DNA from: a bacterium UBP16_UBA6123 | GTDB taxonomy: Bacteria; Muiribacteriota; UBA9980 | Direction: 5' to 3' | Assembly: GCA_002423385.1 (NCBI GenBank) | Contig: DIVV01000217.1 | Location: 8,781 to 72,780 of the forward strand | DNA length: 64,000 nt | Part shown: positions 3,001-59,344 of the stretch, piece by piece | Position numbering within the stretch: position 1 is the stretch's first letter | How the letters are laid out: the number at the start of each line of letters is the position of its first letter | Position numbers and translations under genes: made by a program | The notes under the pieces: generated by a model | The model's input: only the letters and a program-made list of their open reading frames with translations | Told to the model about the DNA's origin: nothing | Databases searched by the model: none

Positions 3001-6000
3001 GACGGCTAATGCTGAAATTAAAAAAAGCACGGGCTCCTTTACCAGCATTAACACATATTACACGAATCTCGATTCAAACTACATAAGAAGCACCATAGAT
3101 GTAAGTGATAACGGTAATCCTGCTTCAAATTTCAATACGGCGGCTAAATACAGGGTTATAATTTGTGAAAACGCCGATCCCGGAACCGGCGTATTGTTTG
3201 ACACAGCGCATCCGATGGCGGGTTCGGTTTTTGATTCCAACTGGATATCCTATGCAACCTTTAACGCCGGTTATAATTTCAATTTTGCCGCTAAGACCGA
3301 AACTTATTATAAATGGCGCGTTTACACTAAAGATAACGTCGGCAATGTTAATTATTCAACCGTTAAGGATGTTTACTACGATATACAAAAACCTTCCGAA
3401 CCTTCGCTAACATTGAAAGTTGCAGATAAACATTACGCTGATCCTTCCGATTTTTACTGGACTAAAAATAATCAGCCCGGCTTTACCGGCACCGTCGTTA
3501 CCGATACGCCAGTCGGGCTTGACGGTTCAGGGCTTCATTCCGCCGGCGCTTACAGGTTTTTGATCTACACCACGCAGACGCCTAAACCTGCTGACGAAGA
3601 TTCATTTACGCTTGTTCCGGCCAATGTGGCTTACGATACAGGTTGGGCGGCTTCTACGACCGATTTCGCCCCGGCCGCCGCTCTGGCTAACGGCACTTAT
3701 TACTGCCGCATCTATGTCCGCGATAACGCGGGTAATATAAATTATTCAAACAATACAAATGCGGCCGAAAGCTGTAATGCTAACGGTGATCTTATAATTA
3801 AAGTTGACGTCACCGCGCCTTCGATTAGTGCCAATAATTTTTCGCCGCATGCCTGGGTTGATTCTATTAATCCAACTTTCGGACAGGTAGTCGATAATTC
3901 ACCTACTTCAGAGCAGCAAAAAGCGGGTTCCGAAGTTACCAGCAGCGATGGCGCCGGTTCTGGCATCAAATCATACAGAATACAGGCTGGTGTTGGTTTC
4001 AGCGCGTGGGATATCGGCGTTGAATATGATTCCGGCATTATTTTAACCGGGTTGACTACTATGCCAGCGCGTACAACCAATGTTAACGGCGGCGACGCCG
4101 GGTTTATAACTAAAACTTTCGCCGACGGCAATTTAGTTAAATGGATGGTACGCATTGAAGATAATGTAGGCAATGTTCGGTATACACCTACACCCACACC
4201 GTTGGTTATGACCTTCGGTATCGAAGATCAAAATCCTAACGCAGTCACGCATAATTTCCCCGGAAACGATCTGTGGATAAGCAAAAATACATTCGATGTC
4301 AAATGGAACCCGGGTACCGATGTCGGAACTGCCGGAGCCGGCCATTATATCGTTTATGTTGCCAGTGCTGATTTTGCGGGCAGCGATCCGGCCGGCTGGA
4401 GTATTATACATAATTCGGCTAATTTAATTCCGACCGTGAATAATCCCGAATTATGGACCGTTCCGGTTATGGCGCTGGCGACTTATGAAGGCAAGACCAT
4501 TTACTGGAAGGTAAGATTTTACGATAAAGCGCTCAACTATACCGATTCAGCCACGACAACTTTTAAAATCGATATGACCAAACCGACCGTTGCGCTCAAT
4601 GCGCCCACCGTGTCCGGTGCCGAACAGGCGCCGCAGTCTATAACCGGCACTTCACACTGGGTGAATACACGCACGCCTAAACTTAACTGGAGCGCGCAGA
4701 CCGATCCTGACGGCGCGGCGGGCCAGCCGGGTTCGGGTTGGCAGGTTGCCGGTCAGTACGGCGCGACCTACGCTTATAAACTTGAGATATCGACCACTAA
4801 TTTCGGCGCTATTTTCTGGGATAACGGCGTTCTGGGCACCAATCCGCTCGATGTTAATCACATCATTCCCGCCGGCGCTTCGCTCGTCGATAGCACATTT
4901 TACTATTATCGCGTCCGCTTTTTCGATAAAGGCGGCCAGGCCGAAGCCATAGACGGCAATTTCAATACGACTCCCGTATGGAGCGTTAAATGCGATATAA
5001 CTAAACCGCAAAAACCAGTTCTCGTATGGCCGGGCGATGCGGCCGGAACCGAATGGATAAGCGCGGCGAAGCCGCTTCTGCACTGGAGAGGCGGCGACGA
5101 TAACGATGGCCTTGCGACTCCGAAACCCGGTATCGGCACCAAGGAAGTAATCGTGCAGATCGCTACAGATGCGGCGTTTGCCGATCTCGTTTTAAACAAA
5201 ACTATTAATTATACCGGCACGCCTGCCGCGCTTGACACCTATCAGATGGCCGCAGTCGATCCATCGCTTGCTGAAAGCACTTATTATTACTGGCGCGTTG
5301 CCGTTAAAGATAAATTCCTTCAGCAGTCCGACTGGTCCGATGTGTTCAGGTTCCGATGCGATTTCACGAAGCCGACGGCCGCCGTTCTCGACGGGCCCGG
5401 TAATATATATCCGCCTGGCAATACCAGCGAGGACGCATACTGGATAAATACACGAACTCCTACATTTAAGTGGACGCCGCCCGTCGATGTTGACGTAAGC
5501 GGCCAGTGCGCCGGTATGGCAAGCGTCGAAATACAGATTTCGAATAATGTTACCGTCGTAGGGAGCGATGTTACATTTAACTCTTATTTTTACACGAAGA
5601 AACTTATGAAGGGTGAACTGGCTTACGAAAATGGCGAATTCACCCTGCCCGACCCGAATAAGCTATCCGGTAACGGACCTTATTACTGGCGCGTTATTTC
5701 TTACGATAAAGCCAATAATCCAGTCGCTAATAAAACTATTTCCGATGTTTTCGTTTTCAGCATGGACTTCGTGCCGCCTGATTATTTTTCGATCAATCAC
5801 GAATACGCCGATAGCGGCAGCGTTAATTTAACTGTGCTCAGAATAAGGCCTGTGGGCCCGAATAAAACTACCGGTGACGCCTACGACGAAGTCGCCGATT
5901 TGTTTACGGGCGTCGCGACCGCCGGTATCAGTAAAATTCAATACTGGTACAGAAAACATCCTTCTACGACATGGACGATGGCCGGCTGGACCGATGAAGT

Positions 6001-33703: not shown

Positions 33704-33740
33704 TGTATAATAATAGTGTATAGTGTATAGTGCATAGTTA
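33701..33740 (+). repeat. Tandem heptamer (TAGTGTA)n immediately after the giant-gene stop codon
   Basis: tagtgta-taataa-tagtgta-tagtgta-tagtgca-tagtta. The TAG copies at 33701, 33714, 33721, 33728 and 33735 fall in all three + frames. Confidence 0.7.
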
Positions 33741-34533: not shown

Positions 34534-34986
34534 ATGAGCGGCGCGTCGTATAAAAGGCGGTATTTAATGAGCTATTTATCTAAAGTCGAACTGCTTGAAA
34601 TTTTATATGATATGGATTCGCCGTCTAATGAAGGCTCGCTGCTCGTTCATGAAAGCAGGAGCGGCGAAGAGCTTTTATGCTGCGACGTCGATTGCGGCGA
34701 TCATCTTGATTTATTTAAAATAGGCGGGCATTACGAAGCTTTTTTCTCCACGTTCGGAATGATAACTCACGCAGACGAAGAAAACGCCGTGCCGAAAGTC
34801 GAAAAAAACCAGTTTCGCGGCGTAACGCGGTTAAACGCCACTATCATAGATATCAGGGATAACTGGTATATATGCGACGCCGGTTTTTATGTTTACGCCA
34901 TGTCGATAACCAATATAAGCGGCCTTAAAAAAGGCGACAGGGTAACGATAGCCGGCGGGCTCAGAGTCGATCTTATCGTTAAATAA
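34534..34986 (+). CDS. Hypothetical protein (150 aa)
   Basis: ORF follows the previous gene after 30 nt. No recognisable motifs. Convergent with buk, 10-nt gap, with a small palindrome taaact-atc-agttta at the junction. Confidence 0.4.
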   Translation: MSGASYKRRYLMSYLSKVELLEILYDMDSPSNEGSLLVHESRSGEELLCCDVDCGDHLDLFKIGGHYEAFFSTFGMITHADEENAVPKVEKNQFRGVTRLNATIIDIRDNWYICDAGFYVYAMSITNISGLKKGDRVTIAGGLRVDLIVK

Positions 34987-34995
34987 ACTATCAGT

Positions 34996-36069
34996 TTATT
35001 CTAATTTTTTCGCCTGTTCCTGCCCCGAAAGCACGCGATATGCGCCGGCAGCCATGGAAGCGAGTTCGTCTTCGCCGCCGAAGACCAGCACTTTTGAAAT
35101 GAATGAAACGCGCTGCTTGATTAATTCGACGAGCTTTTTAAAGCGCGCGAGGCCGCCGGTTAAAACGATGGCGTCAACCCTGCCGCGCAGTACCGTCGAC
35201 ATTCCGCCGATTTCCTTGCATACCTGGTGGCAGAGGCCGTGCATAACCATTTCGGCTTTTTTATCGCCCGCGGTGACCATGTCTTCGAATATTCTGCCGT
35301 CGTTAGTGTTCAGATAGGCTATGATTCCGCCTTTTTTCATAAACATTTCCTGGATTCGCTTTTTATCGTATTTGCCGCAGAAGCATATATTGATGAGCGC
35401 GCGCAGCGGAAGACCGCCCGTGCGGTCGATGGAAAATGGGCCTTCGTCGTAAGCGTTGTTTACATCGATCATTTTGCCCTGATCGTGCGCGGTGACAGAT
35501 ACTCCCGAGCCTAAATGCGCTATTACCATATTCAATTTATCGTAAGGCGCGCCCAGTTCTTTAGCGGCAAGGCGCCCGACGGCTTTAATGTTGAGCGCGT
35601 GCGACAGGCTTTCGCGCTCGATTATCGGATGGCCGCTCACGCGCGCTTCGTCGCACATTTCATCCACGCATACCGGATCGACTATAAAAACGTTTTTAAC
35701 CGTTTCGCCGGCGAGATTTTTCGCGATCAGACCGCCTAATATCGATACGTGCAGGACGGAGTATTTAGTTTTAAGCTCCTCGACCATTTTTTCCTCGATT
35801 ATATAAGTGCCGGAAGCCAGAGAGCGTATGGGGCCGCCGCGGCCTACTATCGCCGATAATTCGGTTACCGCGACTTTATGTTCGGTTAAAAACTTTTTAA
35901 CCATATTGGTGCGGTAGTCGAGCTGATCGAATATGCATTCGAATTCTTGAATTTCAGAATCTGGATGGCTTATGTTTTTTTCGGATATTTTTTCTTCGTT
36001 TTTATAAAGTCCTACTTTAGTAGAAGTGGACCCGGGATTGATGGTTAATATTAAATGATTTGACTCCAT
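34996..36069 (-). CDS. buk: Butyrate kinase
   Basis: N-term ILTINPGSTSTKVGLY is the acetate/butyrate kinase ASKHA phosphate-1 motif. Length 357 aa. Adjacent to the ptb homolog. Confidence 0.9.
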   Translation of the reverse strand: MESNHLILTINPGSTSTKVGLYKNEEKISEKNISHPDSEIQEFECIFDQLDYRTNMVKKFLTEHKVAVTELSAIVGRGGPIRSLASGTYIIEEKMVEELKTKYSVLHVSILGGLIAKNLAGETVKNVFIVDPVCVDEMCDEARVSGHPIIERESLSHALNIKAVGRLAAKELGAPYDKLNMVIAHLGSGVSVTAHDQGKMIDVNNAYDEGPFSIDRTGGLPLRALINICFCGKYDKKRIQEMFMKKGGIIAYLNTNDGRIFEDMVTAGDKKAEMVMHGLCHQVCKEIGGMSTVLRGRVDAIVLTGGLARFKKLVELIKQRVSFISKVLVFGGEDELASMAAGAYRVLSGQEQAKKLE

Positions 36070-36211
36070 GACTACTCCTTAATTATTATATTTATATTTA
36101 TACTTATTTTATATTTATTCAAAATTTTTAACTGTCTATCATTAATTGTTAACTATTATAATCTATATTAATTTATGTTTATCCGCCTGTTTGTTAATCT
36201 TAGTCTTGCGT

Positions 36212-37243
36212 TTAATTAAAGATTGAAAGCAGTGCGCCTAAGGCCATTGAATTTAATTTTGTATTGAAATTATCCGCGCGGGAGAGCATTATAACCGGTT
36301 TTGACGTACCGCAGATAATTCCCGCCGACTGCGAATCGGTAAAATATAAAAGCGATTTACCGAGAAGGTTGCCCGTTTCTATATTCGGAACTATTAATAT
36401 ATCGGCGGGGCCGTCGAAATTTAATTTGATGTCATTTTTGGCGGCGGCTTCGGGTGAAATCGCCGCGTCTAAAGTGATCGGCCCGCTTATGGCGGCGGGC
36501 GAACCGTCGATGAATAATTTTAGATCGTCTCTTACGGCCGCCATGGCGACGGATGACTTTAAAAGCGGATCGGGCCGGTTGAAAGCGGATATCAGAGCTG
36601 TTTTCGGGATTCGACCGCAAATTTTGTAAAACGCGTCGACGGCGTTTTCGGTTATATGGCAAAACTCTTCGTAACCCGGATATAAATTCATCCCGCCGTC
36701 TGATATCATTTTAATATTGCCTGTGACGGGGCATTCGAATACCTGTATGTGCGAAAGAAGTTTCGATTTTCTAAGACCGCTCTGTTTATCCAGAACGGCT
36801 TTTAAAAACATTCCGGTCGATAGATGCCCTTTCATAAGTATCTGGGCGCGTCCGCCCCGGACAGCCTCTGTAGCGAGTGCGGCGGCTTCGCGTTCGCAAG
36901 TCGTGTCGATAATTTCGATACCGGAAATATCGACTTTATATTCATCCGCGGCTTTTTTTATTTTATCGGCGTTATCGAAAAATATAAAATCGAGAATGTT
37001 TTCGCTGCCGGCTATTTCGGCCGATTTTAAAACGGCTTCATCCGCGGCGCAGACGACCGCGACTTTTTGTTTCGGCCTGGATTTAATATAATCGAGAACG
37101 GCTTTGAAATTATTGCGCGTGCCGCCCGCGGTGCTTTGCATCATAACTACCCCCGTTATTGCCTGTTTGTATTTTTGGGTTATTATATTTCTATTTATAA
37201 TTGTGTCAACTGTTATATTATCAGGTAATCGATTTTGAATCAC
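36212..37243 (-). CDS. ptb: Phosphate butyryltransferase / phosphate acyltransferase (PTA_PTB family)
   Basis: …KVAVVCAADEAVLKSAEIA…GHLSTGMFLKAVLDK… is PTA_PTB-like. Upstream of buk on the same strand, the classic ptb-buk operon. The true start is probably the internal Met at nt 37144 (MMQST…), giving ~310 aa. Confidence 0.85.
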   Translation of the reverse strand: MIQNRLPDNITVDTIINRNIITQKYKQAITGVVMMQSTAGGTRNNFKAVLDYIKSRPKQKVAVVCAADEAVLKSAEIAGSENILDFIFFDNADKIKKAADEYKVDISGIEIIDTTCEREAAALATEAVRGGRAQILMKGHLSTGMFLKAVLDKQSGLRKSKLLSHIQVFECPVTGNIKMISDGGMNLYPGYEEFCHITENAVDAFYKICGRIPKTALISAFNRPDPLLKSSVAMAAVRDDLKLFIDGSPAAISGPITLDAAISPEAAAKNDIKLNFDGPADILIVPNIETGNLLGKSLLYFTDSQSAGIICGTSKPVIMLSRADNFNTKLNSMALGALLSIFN

Positions 37244-37518
37244 CGGACCAGGTTATTTATATTTGAATCGTTTATAAAAAAAGATGAAATTATTAAAAAG
37301 AGAAAAGGCAGCAAAATTATAGCCATCAGGATAAGGTAAATAATGGCTTTTTTCGCTGCTTGAAACATTTGATAGGCTATCAGCAGCATTATAATCAATA
37401 TTATGCCGTTTAAAATATTAACCGACATAAAATTCATTCCGAGCTGCCTTAAATAAAGCACGACTGAAAATATTAATTCGTTATACTGCGAGGCAAAAGT
37501 TTTAAGTATTGCGCTCAT
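37240..37518 (-). CDS. Small hydrophobic membrane protein (hypothetical)
   Basis: 92 aa with two or three predicted TM segments. Overlaps neighbours by 4 nt on both sides (operonic). Confidence 0.4.
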   Translation of the reverse strand: MSAILKTFASQYNELIFSVVLYLRQLGMNFMSVNILNGIILIIMLLIAYQMFQAAKKAIIYLILMAIILLPFLFLIISSFFINDSNINNLVR

Positions 37519-37970
37519 AATTCATCAACCTCTGTTTTTTTATTTGTTCTAAGCACTATCCAATCGGAATTTTGAGATTCGCGGTAGCGCATAACGCTGA
37601 AGGGTTTTAGTTTTTCGTTGTCAACGTTTACTTCCCGCTCTATCGATATTATCATTTCATCGGCCGATACTTTCGAAGCGTCGTATCCGATCTCCGCGAA
37701 GCGGTTGGATGTGTAAGTTTTTATCGATAAAATACCGGGCAGTTCGTCGAGCCATTTTGCGAAGGTTTTCGAAGTGCCCAGGCAGACGACGCCGTTGACT
37801 TCGAACTCGGCGGTTTTATAATCGGCGGCCGTAGCGGATTTGATCAGTTCTTCATTTGCATGGTAATAAGTCGGCATCCTGAAAAACCATGCAAAATAAG
37901 AGCACGCCGAGAAAATCAGGACGATGAATATCGGTATTATAATTGGATTAACGCCGGATTCCGGTTTCAT
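37515..37970 (-). CDS. Membrane-anchored hypothetical protein with possible HMA-like (ferredoxin-fold) domain
   Basis: N-terminal TM helix. FEVNGVVCLGTSKTFAKWLDELPGILSIKTY…GYDASKVSADEMIISIE resembles a heavy-metal-associated-like fold with a single Cys. Confidence 0.4.
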   Translation of the reverse strand: MKPESGVNPIIIPIFIVLIFSACSYFAWFFRMPTYYHANEELIKSATAADYKTAEFEVNGVVCLGTSKTFAKWLDELPGILSIKTYTSNRFAEIGYDASKVSADEMIISIEREVNVDNEKLKPFSVMRYRESQNSDWIVLRTNKKTEVDEL

Positions 37971-37973
37971 AAT

Positions 37974-38732
37974 TTAAAACCCTATCTTTAAAGAATTATT
38001 TTTGCCGCAGGCTGAAATGCAGTTTAAGCACATAGTGCAGCCGCGCTTATCGATTTTAACGGTTTCGGAAATTTTAATTTCATTAGGGCAGGCGTCGTCG
38101 CAGAGTTTGCAGTTAACGCAGGTTTTTTCGTCGCGGTATATTTTAAAAACGGTGCGTATATTAAATAAATTCAAAAAAGCGCCGAATGGGCATAGCGTTC
38201 GGCAGAAGCCGAGTTTAATAAAAAAAGTCATCAGCAGGGCATTTGCGAGTATAAAATAGCTGAGCGTTTCGGTGGTGTGGCCGTGAAGCCCGAAAGCCGT
38301 AAAGTAAGGGCAGTAAGGCCGGAACACGAGATCGTAATTTTGATAGGTCACGACGACAATAACTATAAGCAATATATACTTAATGGAATATAAAGGTTTT
38401 AATATATTCGCGCTTAATGGTTTATATTCAGCAAAACGCCCGCGCAGCGAAGTTAATAATTCATTGACCGCGCCGAGCGGACAAACCCATGAGCAGAAAA
38501 CGCGTTTGAAAAATATGGTTAAAATTAAAACGCCGGCGAGTATCGAATAGTTGAATTCGTTCACGGCGCAGGGAAATTTCGCGGTTTTTACGAAAAGCGC
38601 CATCGTTTCAACTGCCCCGAACGGACAGTAAGTTTCACAGTTTTTATAAGAGGCGCCGAGTGAAAACAAAACGGCGTGATATAATATCAATTCTATGAAA
38701 AACAGTTGGAATAAAAATCTTATAGTCCGCAT
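37974..38732 (-). CDS. Membrane-bound 4Fe-4S polyferredoxin (NapH/MauN/CcoG-like)
   Basis: CETYCPFGAVE and CSWVCPLGAVNELL (CxxxCP membrane motifs), plus C-terminal CVNCKLCDDACP and CTMCLNCISAC 4Fe-4S ferredoxin motifs. Multiple TM segments. Confidence 0.7.
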   Translation of the reverse strand: MRTIRFLFQLFFIELILYHAVLFSLGASYKNCETYCPFGAVETMALFVKTAKFPCAVNEFNYSILAGVLILTIFFKRVFCSWVCPLGAVNELLTSLRGRFAEYKPLSANILKPLYSIKYILLIVIVVVTYQNYDLVFRPYCPYFTAFGLHGHTTETLSYFILANALLMTFFIKLGFCRTLCPFGAFLNLFNIRTVFKIYRDEKTCVNCKLCDDACPNEIKISETVKIDKRGCTMCLNCISACGKNNSLKIGF

Positions 38733-38748
38733 TATATCACACCGCCGG

Positions 38749-38795
38749 TTAAGTTAAGTTAAGTTAAGTTGAGTTAAGTTAAGTTAAGTTAAGTT
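38749..38795. repeat. Pentanucleotide microsatellite (AAGTT)9 on + strand = (AACTT)n on the gene strand
   Basis: gtt-aagtt-aagtt-aagtt-aagtt-gagtt-aagtt-aagtt-aagtt-aagtt fills essentially the whole 62-nt gap between the stop of the 38795..39289 gene and the start (38732) of the polyferredoxin gene. Confidence 0.9.
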
Positions 38796-39289
38796 TATTT
38801 AGCTGATTTTTCTATGTTTAAACCTATCGATTCGAGGTATTCGATTTTTTCTTTTTCGCCGCCCGCGGCTATTTTGACCCATAATTCGGAAGCTATATCA
38901 ATAAGCTGGCAGTCTTGATTTTTTTTATTTTCGATTTTAAATTTCGCGGAGAAATCGGCGGCGAGTTTTTCTAAGAGTTTTTTATCGCCTTTTATTTTAA
39001 TTATGACCGTTTTAGCGGTTGCGCGCGAGACGGCTGCCAGGGCCGAAAATTCGGTTTTAACCGCGCCAGCGGATGATGTTGCGCCAGACGTTTTAGCGCC
39101 GTCGGCCGTAAAATTCAAGCTCTCCGTCCGGGCAGCCGGAGAATCGCCGCAACTGCCGCCGGCTTTAGCTTCGCTGCATACTTTTTTTGACGCGCATCCG
39201 TCGCACGACGAGGAGGCGAGCGCAATGCCGGTAAAAGAGCATGATAGAACCGCAATAATGATTATCGATAAAACAAGGTTTTTTGCCAT
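38795..39289 (-). CDS. Secreted/lipoprotein-like hypothetical protein
   Basis: Signal-peptide-like N-term MAKNLVLSIIIIAVLSCSFTGIALA followed by Cys/Gly/Ala/Ser-rich segment. 164 aa. Confidence 0.5.
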   Translation of the reverse strand: MAKNLVLSIIIIAVLSCSFTGIALASSSCDGCASKKVCSEAKAGGSCGDSPAARTESLNFTADGAKTSGATSSAGAVKTEFSALAAVSRATAKTVIIKIKGDKKLLEKLAADFSAKFKIENKKNQDCQLIDIASELWVKIAAGGEKEKIEYLESIGLNIEKSAK

Positions 39290-39442
39290 AGATAGATTAC
39301 CCTCCGTTAATATTGTAATATTGTATATTTATTATTTTTTTGCGTTTCGTTGAACGTGTACCATTATATAATAACGACGGCGTTAATGTCAAGAAAAAAG
39401 GCGTGCCGTGTTTGGGGATAAAGTTATTCGCCGCGCCTGAAG

Positions 39443-40612
39443 TTAACGTGAGATTTTTAAGGAGCTCAGACGGCCGGCCGCCGCGGCGAGCGTTTCTTCT
39501 TTTTTGCAGAAGGCGAATCGGACGAGCTTTTCGCCGTGCCGCTTGTTAAAATAAAACGCGGTCGGCGGTATGGCGGCTACTTTAATTTGTGAGGCAAGAT
39601 ATTTACAGAATTCCACGTCGTTGGTGAAGCCGAAATTCGTAAAATCAGCCATTATAAAGTAAGAACCTTTCGGCATTACTATTTTAAAGCCGCAATCGGT
39701 AAGAGTTTTAGCCATCATGTCGCGTTTTTTAGTATAAAATTCTATTAATTCTTTATAAAAGGAATCCGGCGCCTCGAACCCCTTTACCATGGCATGCTGA
39801 AAAGGAGTAGCCACGGCGAATATTACGTATTGATGCGCCGTGCGAACGGCGGCGCATATAGGCGCGGGCGCGCATACGGTGCCGATTTTCCAGCCGGTCA
39901 TGCTGAAAGTTTTGCCAGTCGAAGATATCGTTACGGTGCGCTCGAACATTCCTTCGATAGAGGCCGTCGGTATGTGTTTTTCGCCGTCGAATGTCAAATG
40001 CTCGTAAACTTCGTCGGAGATGACGGTTAAATCGTGTTTAACCGCGATTTTAGCCAGCGTTTCCAGCTCGGCGCGAGAAAAGACCTTGCCGCTCGGATTG
40101 TGGGGCGTGTTAATTATTATCATGCGCGTTTTATTGTTTATCAGCGATTCGAGTTTTTCGAAGTCGATTTTGAAATCGGGAAATTCGAGCGTCAGGTAGC
40201 GGCAGAGGCCGCCGGCCATGGTGACGGCTACCGGATAGCTGTCATAATAAGGTTCCATTATTATAACTTCGTCGCCGGAGTTTATAATAGATATTATCGT
40301 GGTGAATATGGCCTCGGTCGCCCCTGCCAGTATTGAAATTTCGGTGTCCGGGTTATACGACAGGCCGTAAAATTTATTGTATTTATCGGCTATGGCCTTT
40401 CTTAAGGCGGGAACGCCGAATGTGTTGGCGTACTGGTTATGCCCGGCGTTTATAGCCTCACAGGCGGCCTGCTTTATGAATTCGGGGCCGTCGAAGTCGG
40501 GGAACCCCTGTGAAAGGTTGATGGCGTTGTTTTCAAGTGCCATTTTAGTCATTTCGGCGAATATGGAACTGCCGAAAGGCTGAAGTTTCGAAGTTAAATA
40601 GTTTTTAGACAT
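39443..40612 (-). CDS. PLP-dependent aminotransferase, class I/II (methionine/kynurenine aminotransferase-like)
   Basis: …INLSQGFPDFDGP…, …NPHNPSGKVFS… and the SxxGKTFxxTGWKIG Lys-containing PLP motif (ISSTGKTFSMTGWKIG). 389 aa. Confidence 0.85.
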   Translation of the reverse strand: MSKNYLTSKLQPFGSSIFAEMTKMALENNAINLSQGFPDFDGPEFIKQAACEAINAGHNQYANTFGVPALRKAIADKYNKFYGLSYNPDTEISILAGATEAIFTTIISIINSGDEVIIMEPYYDSYPVAVTMAGGLCRYLTLEFPDFKIDFEKLESLINNKTRMIIINTPHNPSGKVFSRAELETLAKIAVKHDLTVISDEVYEHLTFDGEKHIPTASIEGMFERTVTISSTGKTFSMTGWKIGTVCAPAPICAAVRTAHQYVIFAVATPFQHAMVKGFEAPDSFYKELIEFYTKKRDMMAKTLTDCGFKIVMPKGSYFIMADFTNFGFTNDVEFCKYLASQIKVAAIPPTAFYFNKRHGEKLVRFAFCKKEETLAAAAGRLSSLKISR

Positions 40613-44794: not shown

Positions 44795-44997
44795 TATTAA
44801 TGGCCGCCCCCTCATTTTCCGGTACTGCAGGCGGGATCTTCGGCGGGAGCCGCTTCGGTTTTTACTTCAGCGGTTTCATTGGCAGCCGGCGCCGCAGTTT
44901 CAGTTTTTACTTCGGCGGTTTTGCCGGAGTCTGCCGCCGGAGCTGCTGCTTTAACTTCAACGGCTTCGCCGGCCGCAGGGGCCGCCGCAGTCGCTAA

Positions 44998-45579
44998 TTG
45001 ATCGAGGTTTTTTTCGAAATCGGGCATGGCGGGATGTCCGCTCCATGCTATTTTCTGGTCGGCGCGGCGACCATCAGGCAAATAGCCGGGGCCGCCGGCG
45101 TCGCGGTAGGCACCATATATGTTTATTTTAAAAACAAAGACGATATCCTTCATGAATTATTAAATCGGCACAAAGAAGAGCATTACTTGCTTTTTGATAA
45201 GATGTCGGTTTTAAAGCCCGAAAAAGCGATCAAATTTTTTTATGAAGACCGGTTTAAATCTCTTTCAAAACTCAATAATTTAATAAGCGTTTTCATGTTT
45301 GAAGTAACGCGGGATAAAAAACTCAGAGGAATAATTCACAAAAAAATATTTGAAACGATTAACGAAAAAATGAAAACTTTCTTTAAAACCGCTATCGAAA
45401 AAAAGAAGATCCGCGATTTTAAAGATATCGAAGTTTTAAGCGTTTTAATGCTGAGCATAGTCTCCTCGATTGTAAGCTGGAAAGAATGCGTTTTTTCAAA
45501 ACAACTCAAAGGCATAACCTACGAACGCTTCGCGGACGCCGTCACGGATCTTGCGATGAACGGCCTGGCCTTAAAGTAA
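44998..45579 (+). CDS. TetR/AcrR-family transcriptional regulator
   Basis: HTH IRQIAGAAGVAVGTIYVYFKNKDDILHELL matches the TetR_N consensus (…IAkaaGVskGTlYhYFksKeeLl). TTG start at 44998. The alternative ATG at 45034 gives a product with a shortened helix-1. Precedes the efflux operon. Confidence 0.6.
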   Translation: MIEVFFEIGHGGMSAPCYFLVGAATIRQIAGAAGVAVGTIYVYFKNKDDILHELLNRHKEEHYLLFDKMSVLKPEKAIKFFYEDRFKSLSKLNNLISVFMFEVTRDKKLRGIIHKKIFETINEKMKTFFKTAIEKKKIRDFKDIEVLSVLMLSIVSSIVSWKECVFSKQLKGITYERFADAVTDLAMNGLALK

Positions 45580-50936: not shown

Positions 50937-50992
50937 CGCCGGCCGTTAAAATACCCTTCATTCAAAATCTTTTAGGCTTTTTACGCTTTTTA

Positions 50993-56447: not shown

Positions 56448-56522
56448 ATTACTACTCGCGTTTAGATGTTATTACTCGCGTGTTTATAATAAAAATTATT
56501 AAGAATATTAAGAATATTAAGA
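56448..56522 (+). repeat. Direct repeats between promoter and RBS of aroF-like gene: 2x ATTACT(ACT)CGCGT and 3x tandem AATATTAAG
   Basis: attactactcgcgt…attactcgcgtg, then attaagaat-attaagaat-attaagaat (56494-56522) ending ~25 nt before ATG 56548. Confidence 0.6.
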
Positions 56523-56547
56523 ATACGGTAATTTAGAAAGGCAGATT

Positions 56548-59278: not shown

Positions 59279-59344
59279 AAATTACTCCTTTGATCTATTA
59301 TTATTTTATTCGATCTATTATTATTTTATAAGTAAATATAATAT

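Follow-up and report, generated by a model that had tools for sequence, protein, structure and literature searches.

A lineage-specific AACTT microsatellite between the first two genes of a polyferredoxin-ptb-buk operon as a probable product of replication slippage

The pentanucleotide array described here is located on the minus strand (38748-38795) of the window, i.e. the whole 64,000-nucleotide stretch of DNA that was analysed, in the spacer between the gene of a 164-aa signal-peptide protein (h164) and the gene of a membrane polyferredoxin (pfd). We consider it probable, at roughly 0.6, that this array is a slippage-generated microsatellite between two cistrons of one operon, which acts at most as an unstructured leader. 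A slippage origin, a role as standby site or spacer and near-neutrality are what we infer for it.

The AACTT array and its operon

Tandem Repeats Finder and direct reading of the sequence delimit an array with a period of 5, 9.6 copies, 95% matches, no indels and a score of 89, the second-highest among the tandem repeats of the 64-kb window. On the minus strand it consists of four AACTT units, one AACTC unit, four further AACTT units and a partial AAC, leaving one perfect four-unit run on each side of the AACTC variant. The complete spacer reads TAA-ACTT(AACTT)3-AACTC-(AACTT)4-AAC-CGGCGGTGTGATATA-ATG, and the first base of the array doubles as the last base of the upstream TAA stop codon. An earlier reading of this DNA from its sequence only (referred to below as the sequence-only reading) had reported about nine AACTT units that take up an entire intergenic region; the repeat, with one variant unit, is real, but it fills only 46-48 of the 62 nt between the stop codon of h164 and the ATG of pfd. 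TAA stops are present in all six frames of the array, an inverted-repeat search found no inverted repeat inside it, and its RNA contains 10 C and 0 G in 46 nt (the transcribed strand is G-free).

A search for the 15-mer (AACTT)3 with up to 2 mismatches returned 9 overlapping matches, all of them at the array, as compared with 0.17 expected from 100 dinucleotide shuffles, none of which reached this count (0/100). The periodic run is longer than in 500 of 500 dinucleotide shuffles of the same spacer. With its short head-to-tail units beyond chance, the array is a bacterial microsatellite. An assembly artefact was ruled out, as the array is identical in three further public assemblies (Logan SRR5323154, JGI 3300002498 and JGI 3300001567) and the 48-nt tract is shorter than a typical short read. 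The copy number is constant in these four consensus assemblies, whose sequences agree to 100% over up to 12.8 kb; since they may represent one strain, the mutability of the array in the window is extrapolated from sister lineages. A search for the conserved anchor CGGCGGTGTRATATARTGCNNACTNTAAGATTTTTATT across metagenomes yielded one contig, already among the loci compared, and no further strain variants.

The upstream cistron is h164 (38795-39289, minus strand; stop codon 38795-38797). Its product has a signal peptide with a conserved signal-peptidase-I cleavage context (A-x-A↓SSSC) and an invariant C-x2-C-x5-C-x8-C motif, and no family match was found in Pfam or NCBIfam. Because the Cys within the hydrophobic region is not conserved, the protein looks secreted rather than lipid-anchored as a lipoprotein. 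The downstream cistron pfd (37974-38732, minus strand; ATG 38732-38730) encodes a 252-aa membrane polyferredoxin (Fer4_5) resembling NapH/MauN with a score under the family cut-off. The rest of the operon (34996-37970, minus strand) encodes a 151-aa protein (h151, 37515-37970, minus strand) with weak MerTP/CopZ-like (HMA) similarity, a 92-aa membrane protein (h92) and, as the last two genes, a phosphate butyryltransferase (ptb) and a butyrate kinase (buk). The genes behind pfd are tightly packed, with a 3-nt gap and then a 4-nt overlap (92-aa gene). The gene context given by the sequence-only reading, with two small ORFs, ptb and buk behind the polyferredoxin gene, is thus correct except for the lipoprotein label of the upstream gene.

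Homologues of the 164-aa protein, together with a scan of species-representative genomes, put the window among the relatives of Candidatus Wallbacteria; Ca. Wallbacteria bacterium GWC2_49_35 is one of the matches, along with several MAGs. Every locus long enough to show all six genes has them in the order h164-pfd-h151-h92-ptb-buk. The 164-aa and 151-aa proteins and the NapH-like polyferredoxin look like an uncharacterised membrane redox or metal module, which in this phylum is always linked to ptb-buk. For ptb, the 343-aa GTG-start ORF probably overstates the length: a 310-aa protein with an ATG start at 37144 is favoured by the orthologues and by one JGI annotation. Elsewhere in the window, an uninterrupted ORF of 11,109 aa (374-33703, plus strand) makes up half of its length, and in the JGI annotation this contig likewise has a giant product, of 7,087 aa, that extends past the end of the locus.

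Turnover of repeats in orthologous spacers

Loci with an h164 at least 76% identical were assigned to the clade of the window, and those with an h164 of 50-60% identity to distant lineages. The h164-pfd spacers of the clade measure 26, 32, 38, 42, 62, 100 and 118 nt. All of them end in CCGGCGGTGT[G/A]ATATA followed by [A/G]TG, and the stretch 5' of the Shine-Dalgarno (SD) block varies from 10 to 102 nt. The 62-nt spacer of the window carries (AACTT)9.6, and the 32-nt spacer of its closest relative (93.8% nucleotide identity) carries ATTTAAGTTAACTTAA, which is made of three degenerate NTTAA units (TTTAA GTTAA CTTAA). Two sister-lineage spacers of 42 and 38 nt contain (TTAG)4.5 and (TTAG)3.5, two others of 100 and 118 nt contain (CTAACTCGG)4 and (CTAACTCGG)6, and the 26-nt spacer AGTTAACTGA is repeat-free. 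Units of 5, 4 and 9 nt are therefore found at one and the same intercistronic position in sister lineages. In the closest relative two TTAAC copies adjoin CCGG, and they are the likely seed from which the array of the window expanded.

An alignment of two contigs, L011 and L008, shows no difference at 3,262 positions except one 18-nt gap, which corresponds to two 9-mer units; TTAG tracts of 3.5 and 4.5 copies separate contigs that are 97-98.5% identical. Because L011 and L008 differ only in the repeat, the h164-pfd spacer is a genuine VNTR hotspot, at which the repeat changes faster than point substitutions accumulate. The sequence-only reading had suspected a site prone to slipped-strand events, and the sister spacers, differing in both unit and copy number, bear this out. 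Prokaryotic short tandem repeats (STRs) have been described as indel hotspots arising via slipped-strand mispairing, and across Pseudomonadota species indel density correlated best with the density of pentanucleotide STRs (PMC12699852). The array shares with bacterial intergenic simple sequence repeats (SSRs) and VNTRs the short head-to-tail units and the non-coding location, and, as for other VNTRs, 4 versus 6 units at the orthologous site separate otherwise identical strains. It differs from them in its host, an uncultivated Wallbacteria-like lineage and not a host-adapted pathogen, and in that units of three lengths arose independently at one position, other spacers of the same operon behaving alike. 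An association of long SSRs with host-dependent organisms is mentioned in a passage of PMC4060949 that cites Mrazek 2007.

Distant Wallbacteria-like lineages have the same gene order and a repeat-free h164-pfd spacer of 17-43 nt with an SD only. Ancestral spacers of 17-21 nt are so short that they leave no room for a promoter, and the comparison points to a compact, co-transcribed h164-pfd pair as the ancestral state.

Lineage-specific, AT-rich tandem repeats are likewise found in the two other sizeable spacers of the operon, h92-ptb and ptb-buk. The window has (ATAAAT)5.7 in these operon spacers, L012 has (TTTAA)5 (L012:6028-6052) and a 10-mer repeated 4.4 times (L012:7097-7140), and L008 has (AAATAC)5.5 (L008:4759-4794) and an 8-mer repeated about 5.2 times (L008:5785-5836). 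The corresponding spacers of distant relatives, of 22-23 nt and 55 nt (132 nt in L021), are repeat-free, and no such arrays were found in about 42 kb of distant-relative loci. Of the 12 intergenic regions in the window that measure 60 nt or more, 6 contain tandem repeats equalled in no more than 3 of 500 shuffles. Other intergenic repeats, each held to the same limit in dinucleotide shuffles of its spacer, were located at 33713-33738 ((ATAGTGT)x3.7-5.7), 36086-36118 ((TTATAT)x5.7), 50970-50992 (9-mer x2.6), 56495-56525 ((TATTAAGAA)x3.4) and 59289-59329 (20-mer x2), several of them a few tens of nt from the SD of the next gene. The AACTT array is one case, the largest, of a clade-wide repeat tendency. 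Selection, and not mutational bias, could account for the clade-wide excess of repeats just upstream of SDs. A tandem repeat of another kind, with a 45-nt unit (15 aa, ...TAEVKTE...), was noticed in a 113-aa ORF (44812-45153, minus strand) that sits in a GC-rich stretch and that a crude gene call had left as intergenic.

Initiation signals, transcription and predicted folding next to the array

Between the array and the start codon there is a conserved 16-nt segment, CCGGCGGTGTGATATA (38733-38748, minus strand), with the SD GGCGG located 9 nt ahead of the ATG; it resembles the GGAGG/GGGGG sites of the other genes. The segment is identical in five of the six clade lineages and carries one substitution in L012, and the sequence 5' of it is completely different. 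As the array is situated 5' of this conserved SD-AUG block, the distance from SD to AUG cannot vary with copy number, contrary to the proposal that unit gain or loss would alter the spacing of the ribosome-binding site (RBS). The segment also includes the first five bases of a TATAAT / TGnTATAAT look-alike, the last T of which is the middle base of the start codon. Reading of the sequence confirmed this overlap, which had been pointed out before.

A tandem pentamer 5' of a gene with an adjoining TGnTATAAT match, at a site that is slippage-prone in relatives, might be taken for a transcriptional phase-variation switch, in which slippage would shift how promoter elements, or the RBS, are spaced for the polyferredoxin-ptb-buk genes. 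In Haemophilus, pentanucleotide tracts are indeed responsible for phase variation, though inside ORFs, as is the case for the (GACGA)n switch in H. influenzae hsdM (PMC2651432). For the array, the probability of such a switch appears to be close to negligible. Formally, TGATATAAT matches an extended -10 element, but the motif and the start codon overlap, and a transcript initiated from it, if it were active, would be predicted to start inside or around codon 3 and to lack the start codon. Its TG or hexamer is changed in two lineages, and the ATG/GTG and the N-terminal codons are kept as coding sequence in 11 of 11 lineages. By hand alignment, -35 candidates 16-18 nt from TATAAT match TTGACA at no more than 2 of 6 positions, and wherever a -10 element might lie 3' of the array, its -35 region would fall inside the repeats, in the same register at every copy number. 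The 46-nt array far exceeds any -35/-10 spacer. The invariance of the SD-AUG block 3' of the array and the insufficient length of the ancestral spacers for a promoter argue in the same direction.

Scans of the h164-pfd spacer predicted neither a sigma-70-like promoter (consensus scan) nor a terminator or terminator-like site. The likely operon promoter, TTGACA-N18-TATAAT with a 12/12 match, is found upstream of the 164-aa gene (39363-39392, minus strand) and is kept in seven of seven clade loci, which argues further against the phase switch. The proposed effect of copy number on promoter spacing accordingly finds no counterpart here, neither a promoter in the spacer nor a variable -35 register being predicted. 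Read-through from h164, which the sequence-only reading had itself named as the outcome that would speak against it, is the best-supported reading, since a conserved promoter exists upstream and none is predicted in the spacer; the spacers of only 17-43 nt in distant relatives likewise indicate co-transcription. On the basis of conservation and geometry, h164 and pfd are most likely co-transcribed from the promoter upstream of h164. The comparison of orthologous loci that had been suggested as a check of the switch did reveal repeat variation among sister lineages, but with the SD block fixed and the promoter elsewhere.

Two further elements were noted in the operon. A second perfect match, TTGACA-N16-TATAAT, precedes ptb (37182-37209, minus strand); it is not conserved in orthologous spacers and may be a strain-specific internal promoter or a chance occurrence in AT-rich DNA. 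The SD of the 164-aa gene is closely preceded by an 8-mer direct repeat (ACAATATT, x2.4-2.9; 39307-39329, minus strand), which the three nearest lineages partly share and which could act as an operator in the 5' leader of the operon.

SD and AUG of pfd are covered by the 5' arm (38730-38746, minus strand) of a predicted 17-bp helix, whose 3' arm ATATTATATCACGCCGTT (38670-38686, minus strand) comprises polyferredoxin codons 16-21. The predicted hairpin has a minimum free energy of -23.8 kcal/mol for 93 nt (z = -3.07; 2 of 200 shuffles are equally stable), and its arms were recovered independently by an inverted-repeat search. According to the folding prediction, the polyferredoxin start is the least accessible of 30 gene starts in the window (0.125 vs a median of about 0.45). 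The hairpin is predicted in six of six clade lineages; it is absent or partial in distant lineages, where the sequence of the 5' arm differs. Covariation across 11 lineages was at the level of shuffles (77% paired cells vs 75.6%, with 65 of 500 shuffles reaching the observed value). Two of the four stem substitutions within the clade are wobble-compatible and two are disruptive, and the 3' arm is also under coding constraint. The SD/AUG hairpin remains a prediction. A search of 34900-39500 on both strands with Rfam 15 gave no covariance-model match at E <= 1.

The array with short flanks (38703-38830) does not fold better than shuffles (z = +1.31), and the spacer is predicted to be only about 45-50% unpaired, with a mean unpaired probability of 0.44 for the tract, so that the term "single-stranded platform" is approximate. 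When 0-20 units were simulated, the predicted SD accessibility was flat at about 0.10 from 2 units upward, and a copy-number-dependent thermodynamic riboregulator was rejected because of this flat response from 2 to 20 units. Hairpin stability and spacer length gave a rho of about 0.66 in six lineages, which is not significant (hand calculation).

In the scenario that we favour, a slippage-generated microsatellite within the operon, replication slippage in the h164-pfd spacer would have produced the lineage-specific array as one state of the VNTR hotspot. In the operon mRNA the array would form a weakly structured A/U/C stretch, free of G and rich in stops, placed between the h164 stop and an SD/AUG block held in the predicted hairpin. 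The stretch 5' of the SD block would only have to be short or unstructured, its sequence and length being otherwise free, and different units and copy numbers may have arisen in sister lineages because of this lack of further constraint. Any role of the array would be to offer single-stranded landing space, i.e. a ribosome standby site, and to set the distance from stop to start. Unstructured 5' tails, including synthetic CA- and AU-repeats, rescue sequestered RBSs, and the effect saturates at 16-18 nt (PMC5934652). Since 46 nt are well beyond this saturation, single-unit changes would be near-neutral; gain or loss of units might otherwise cause a small graded change in the translation of the polyferredoxin and of the coupled downstream genes, with no ON/OFF behaviour. 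The efficiency of translational coupling drops as the stop-start distance grows and depends also on RBS structure (PMC12548453). A longer stop-to-start distance may lower re-initiation-type coupling, with a modest graded effect on the polyferredoxin and downstream genes.

The same relation could be put to adaptive use, if the VNTR served as a tuning knob that sets the distance from stop to hairpin and thereby heritably and reversibly adjusts coupling or re-initiation, and with it how much of the polyferredoxin module is made relative to the 164-aa protein. This main rival, a form of quantitative contingency acting in translation, we regard as unlikely, even though a predicted sequestered SD/AUG lies directly 3' of the array, the stretch in front of it spans 10-102 nt across the clade with strain-level polymorphism, three different units arose at one site, the downstream genes are tightly coupled (3-nt gap, 4-nt overlap), and coupling is known to respond to stop-start distance and RBS structure (PMC12548453). 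In equilibrium folding the predicted SD accessibility does not respond to copy number, the standby effect levels off at 16-18 nt, and the hairpin is without covariation support. The array is interrupted and hence less mutable, and it would act on metabolic genes instead of the surface or restriction genes that are the usual targets. Repeats are present also in other spacers that lack an obvious hairpin, which favours a general mutational tendency.

The tract itself might also be the functional element. Either TTAAC/GTTAA would be bound by a regulator or nucleoid protein, or AACUU would be an entry site for RNase E/Y or Rho that uncouples the two halves of the mRNA. RNase E prefers AU-rich single-stranded RNA, to which the tract would be suited; the regularly spaced TTAA core would suit a binding protein, and the G-free, C-containing RNA (10 C, 0 G) recalls C>G rut regions. 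Yet the sequence is not conserved in sister lineages, the TTAG repeats have G>C, and one lineage is repeat-free. A 5-bp period places successive sites on opposite helix faces, no cognate regulator is evident, and there was no Rfam match in the region searched. An array of such sites is very improbable, and a Rho rut region, RNase site or regulator-binding array has been rejected as the main explanation, given that neither sequence nor C/G bias is conserved between lineages.

Relation to known repeat systems and implications

SSR contingency loci include the (CTCTT)n repeat of Neisseria opa, an example of phase variation, and the (TA)n repeat of hif, which lies in a promoter spacer. The array resembles contingency loci in being a slippage-prone pentanucleotide tract by a gene start. 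It differs from them in its position, which is outside any ORF and outside a -35/-10 interval, within an operon and ahead of a fixed SD, as well as in its interrupted tract and its neighbouring metabolic and redox genes, and its geometry does not give an ON/OFF state. Location in an ORF or promoter, a long uninterrupted tract and targets in surface, host-interaction or restriction-modification functions, by which contingency loci are recognized, are all lacking in the array.

Ribosome standby sites, such as those of MS2 coat and tisB (de Smit & van Duin model), are similar in that a weakly structured A/U/C tract is found 5' of a predicted SD/AUG hairpin, and by this analogy the array may work like a standby site. 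It differs from them in that the arrangement is only predicted, the tract is intercistronic and not a 5' tail, its length is far above the 16-18 nt needed, and the hairpin is without covariation support. Mycobacterial MIRU elements are likewise variable-number tandem repeats between genes of one operon. Their units are about 50-100 bp long, with small ORFs that run into the start and stop codons on either side, whereas the units here are of 4-9 nt and the AACTT array has stops in all frames. A GC-rich spacer hairpin, as expected for intrinsic terminators or REP-like elements, is not present.

A pentamer tract beside a start codon, however striking, need not be a phase-variation switch, and three comparative checks, i.e. 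the conserved position of the SD, the conserved position of the promoter and the orthologous spacers, settle most of the matter. In a broader form, the intercistronic microsatellites of this clade might represent a selected evolvable device, in which unstructured tracts, formed again and again by tandem duplication beside SD-sequestering hairpins, heritably tune coupling or standby loading by their copy number and thereby the subunit stoichiometry of operons. We consider this quite improbable. If true, selected intercistronic tuners would give a free-living, uncultivated phylum a counterpart of contingency loci at the level of translation. The distances of 10-102 nt from stop to predicted hairpin in the clade constitute a natural series for models of coupling and ribosome standby, and the repeat site itself could become a strain-typing marker in methanogenic hydrocarbon-degrading and similar communities.
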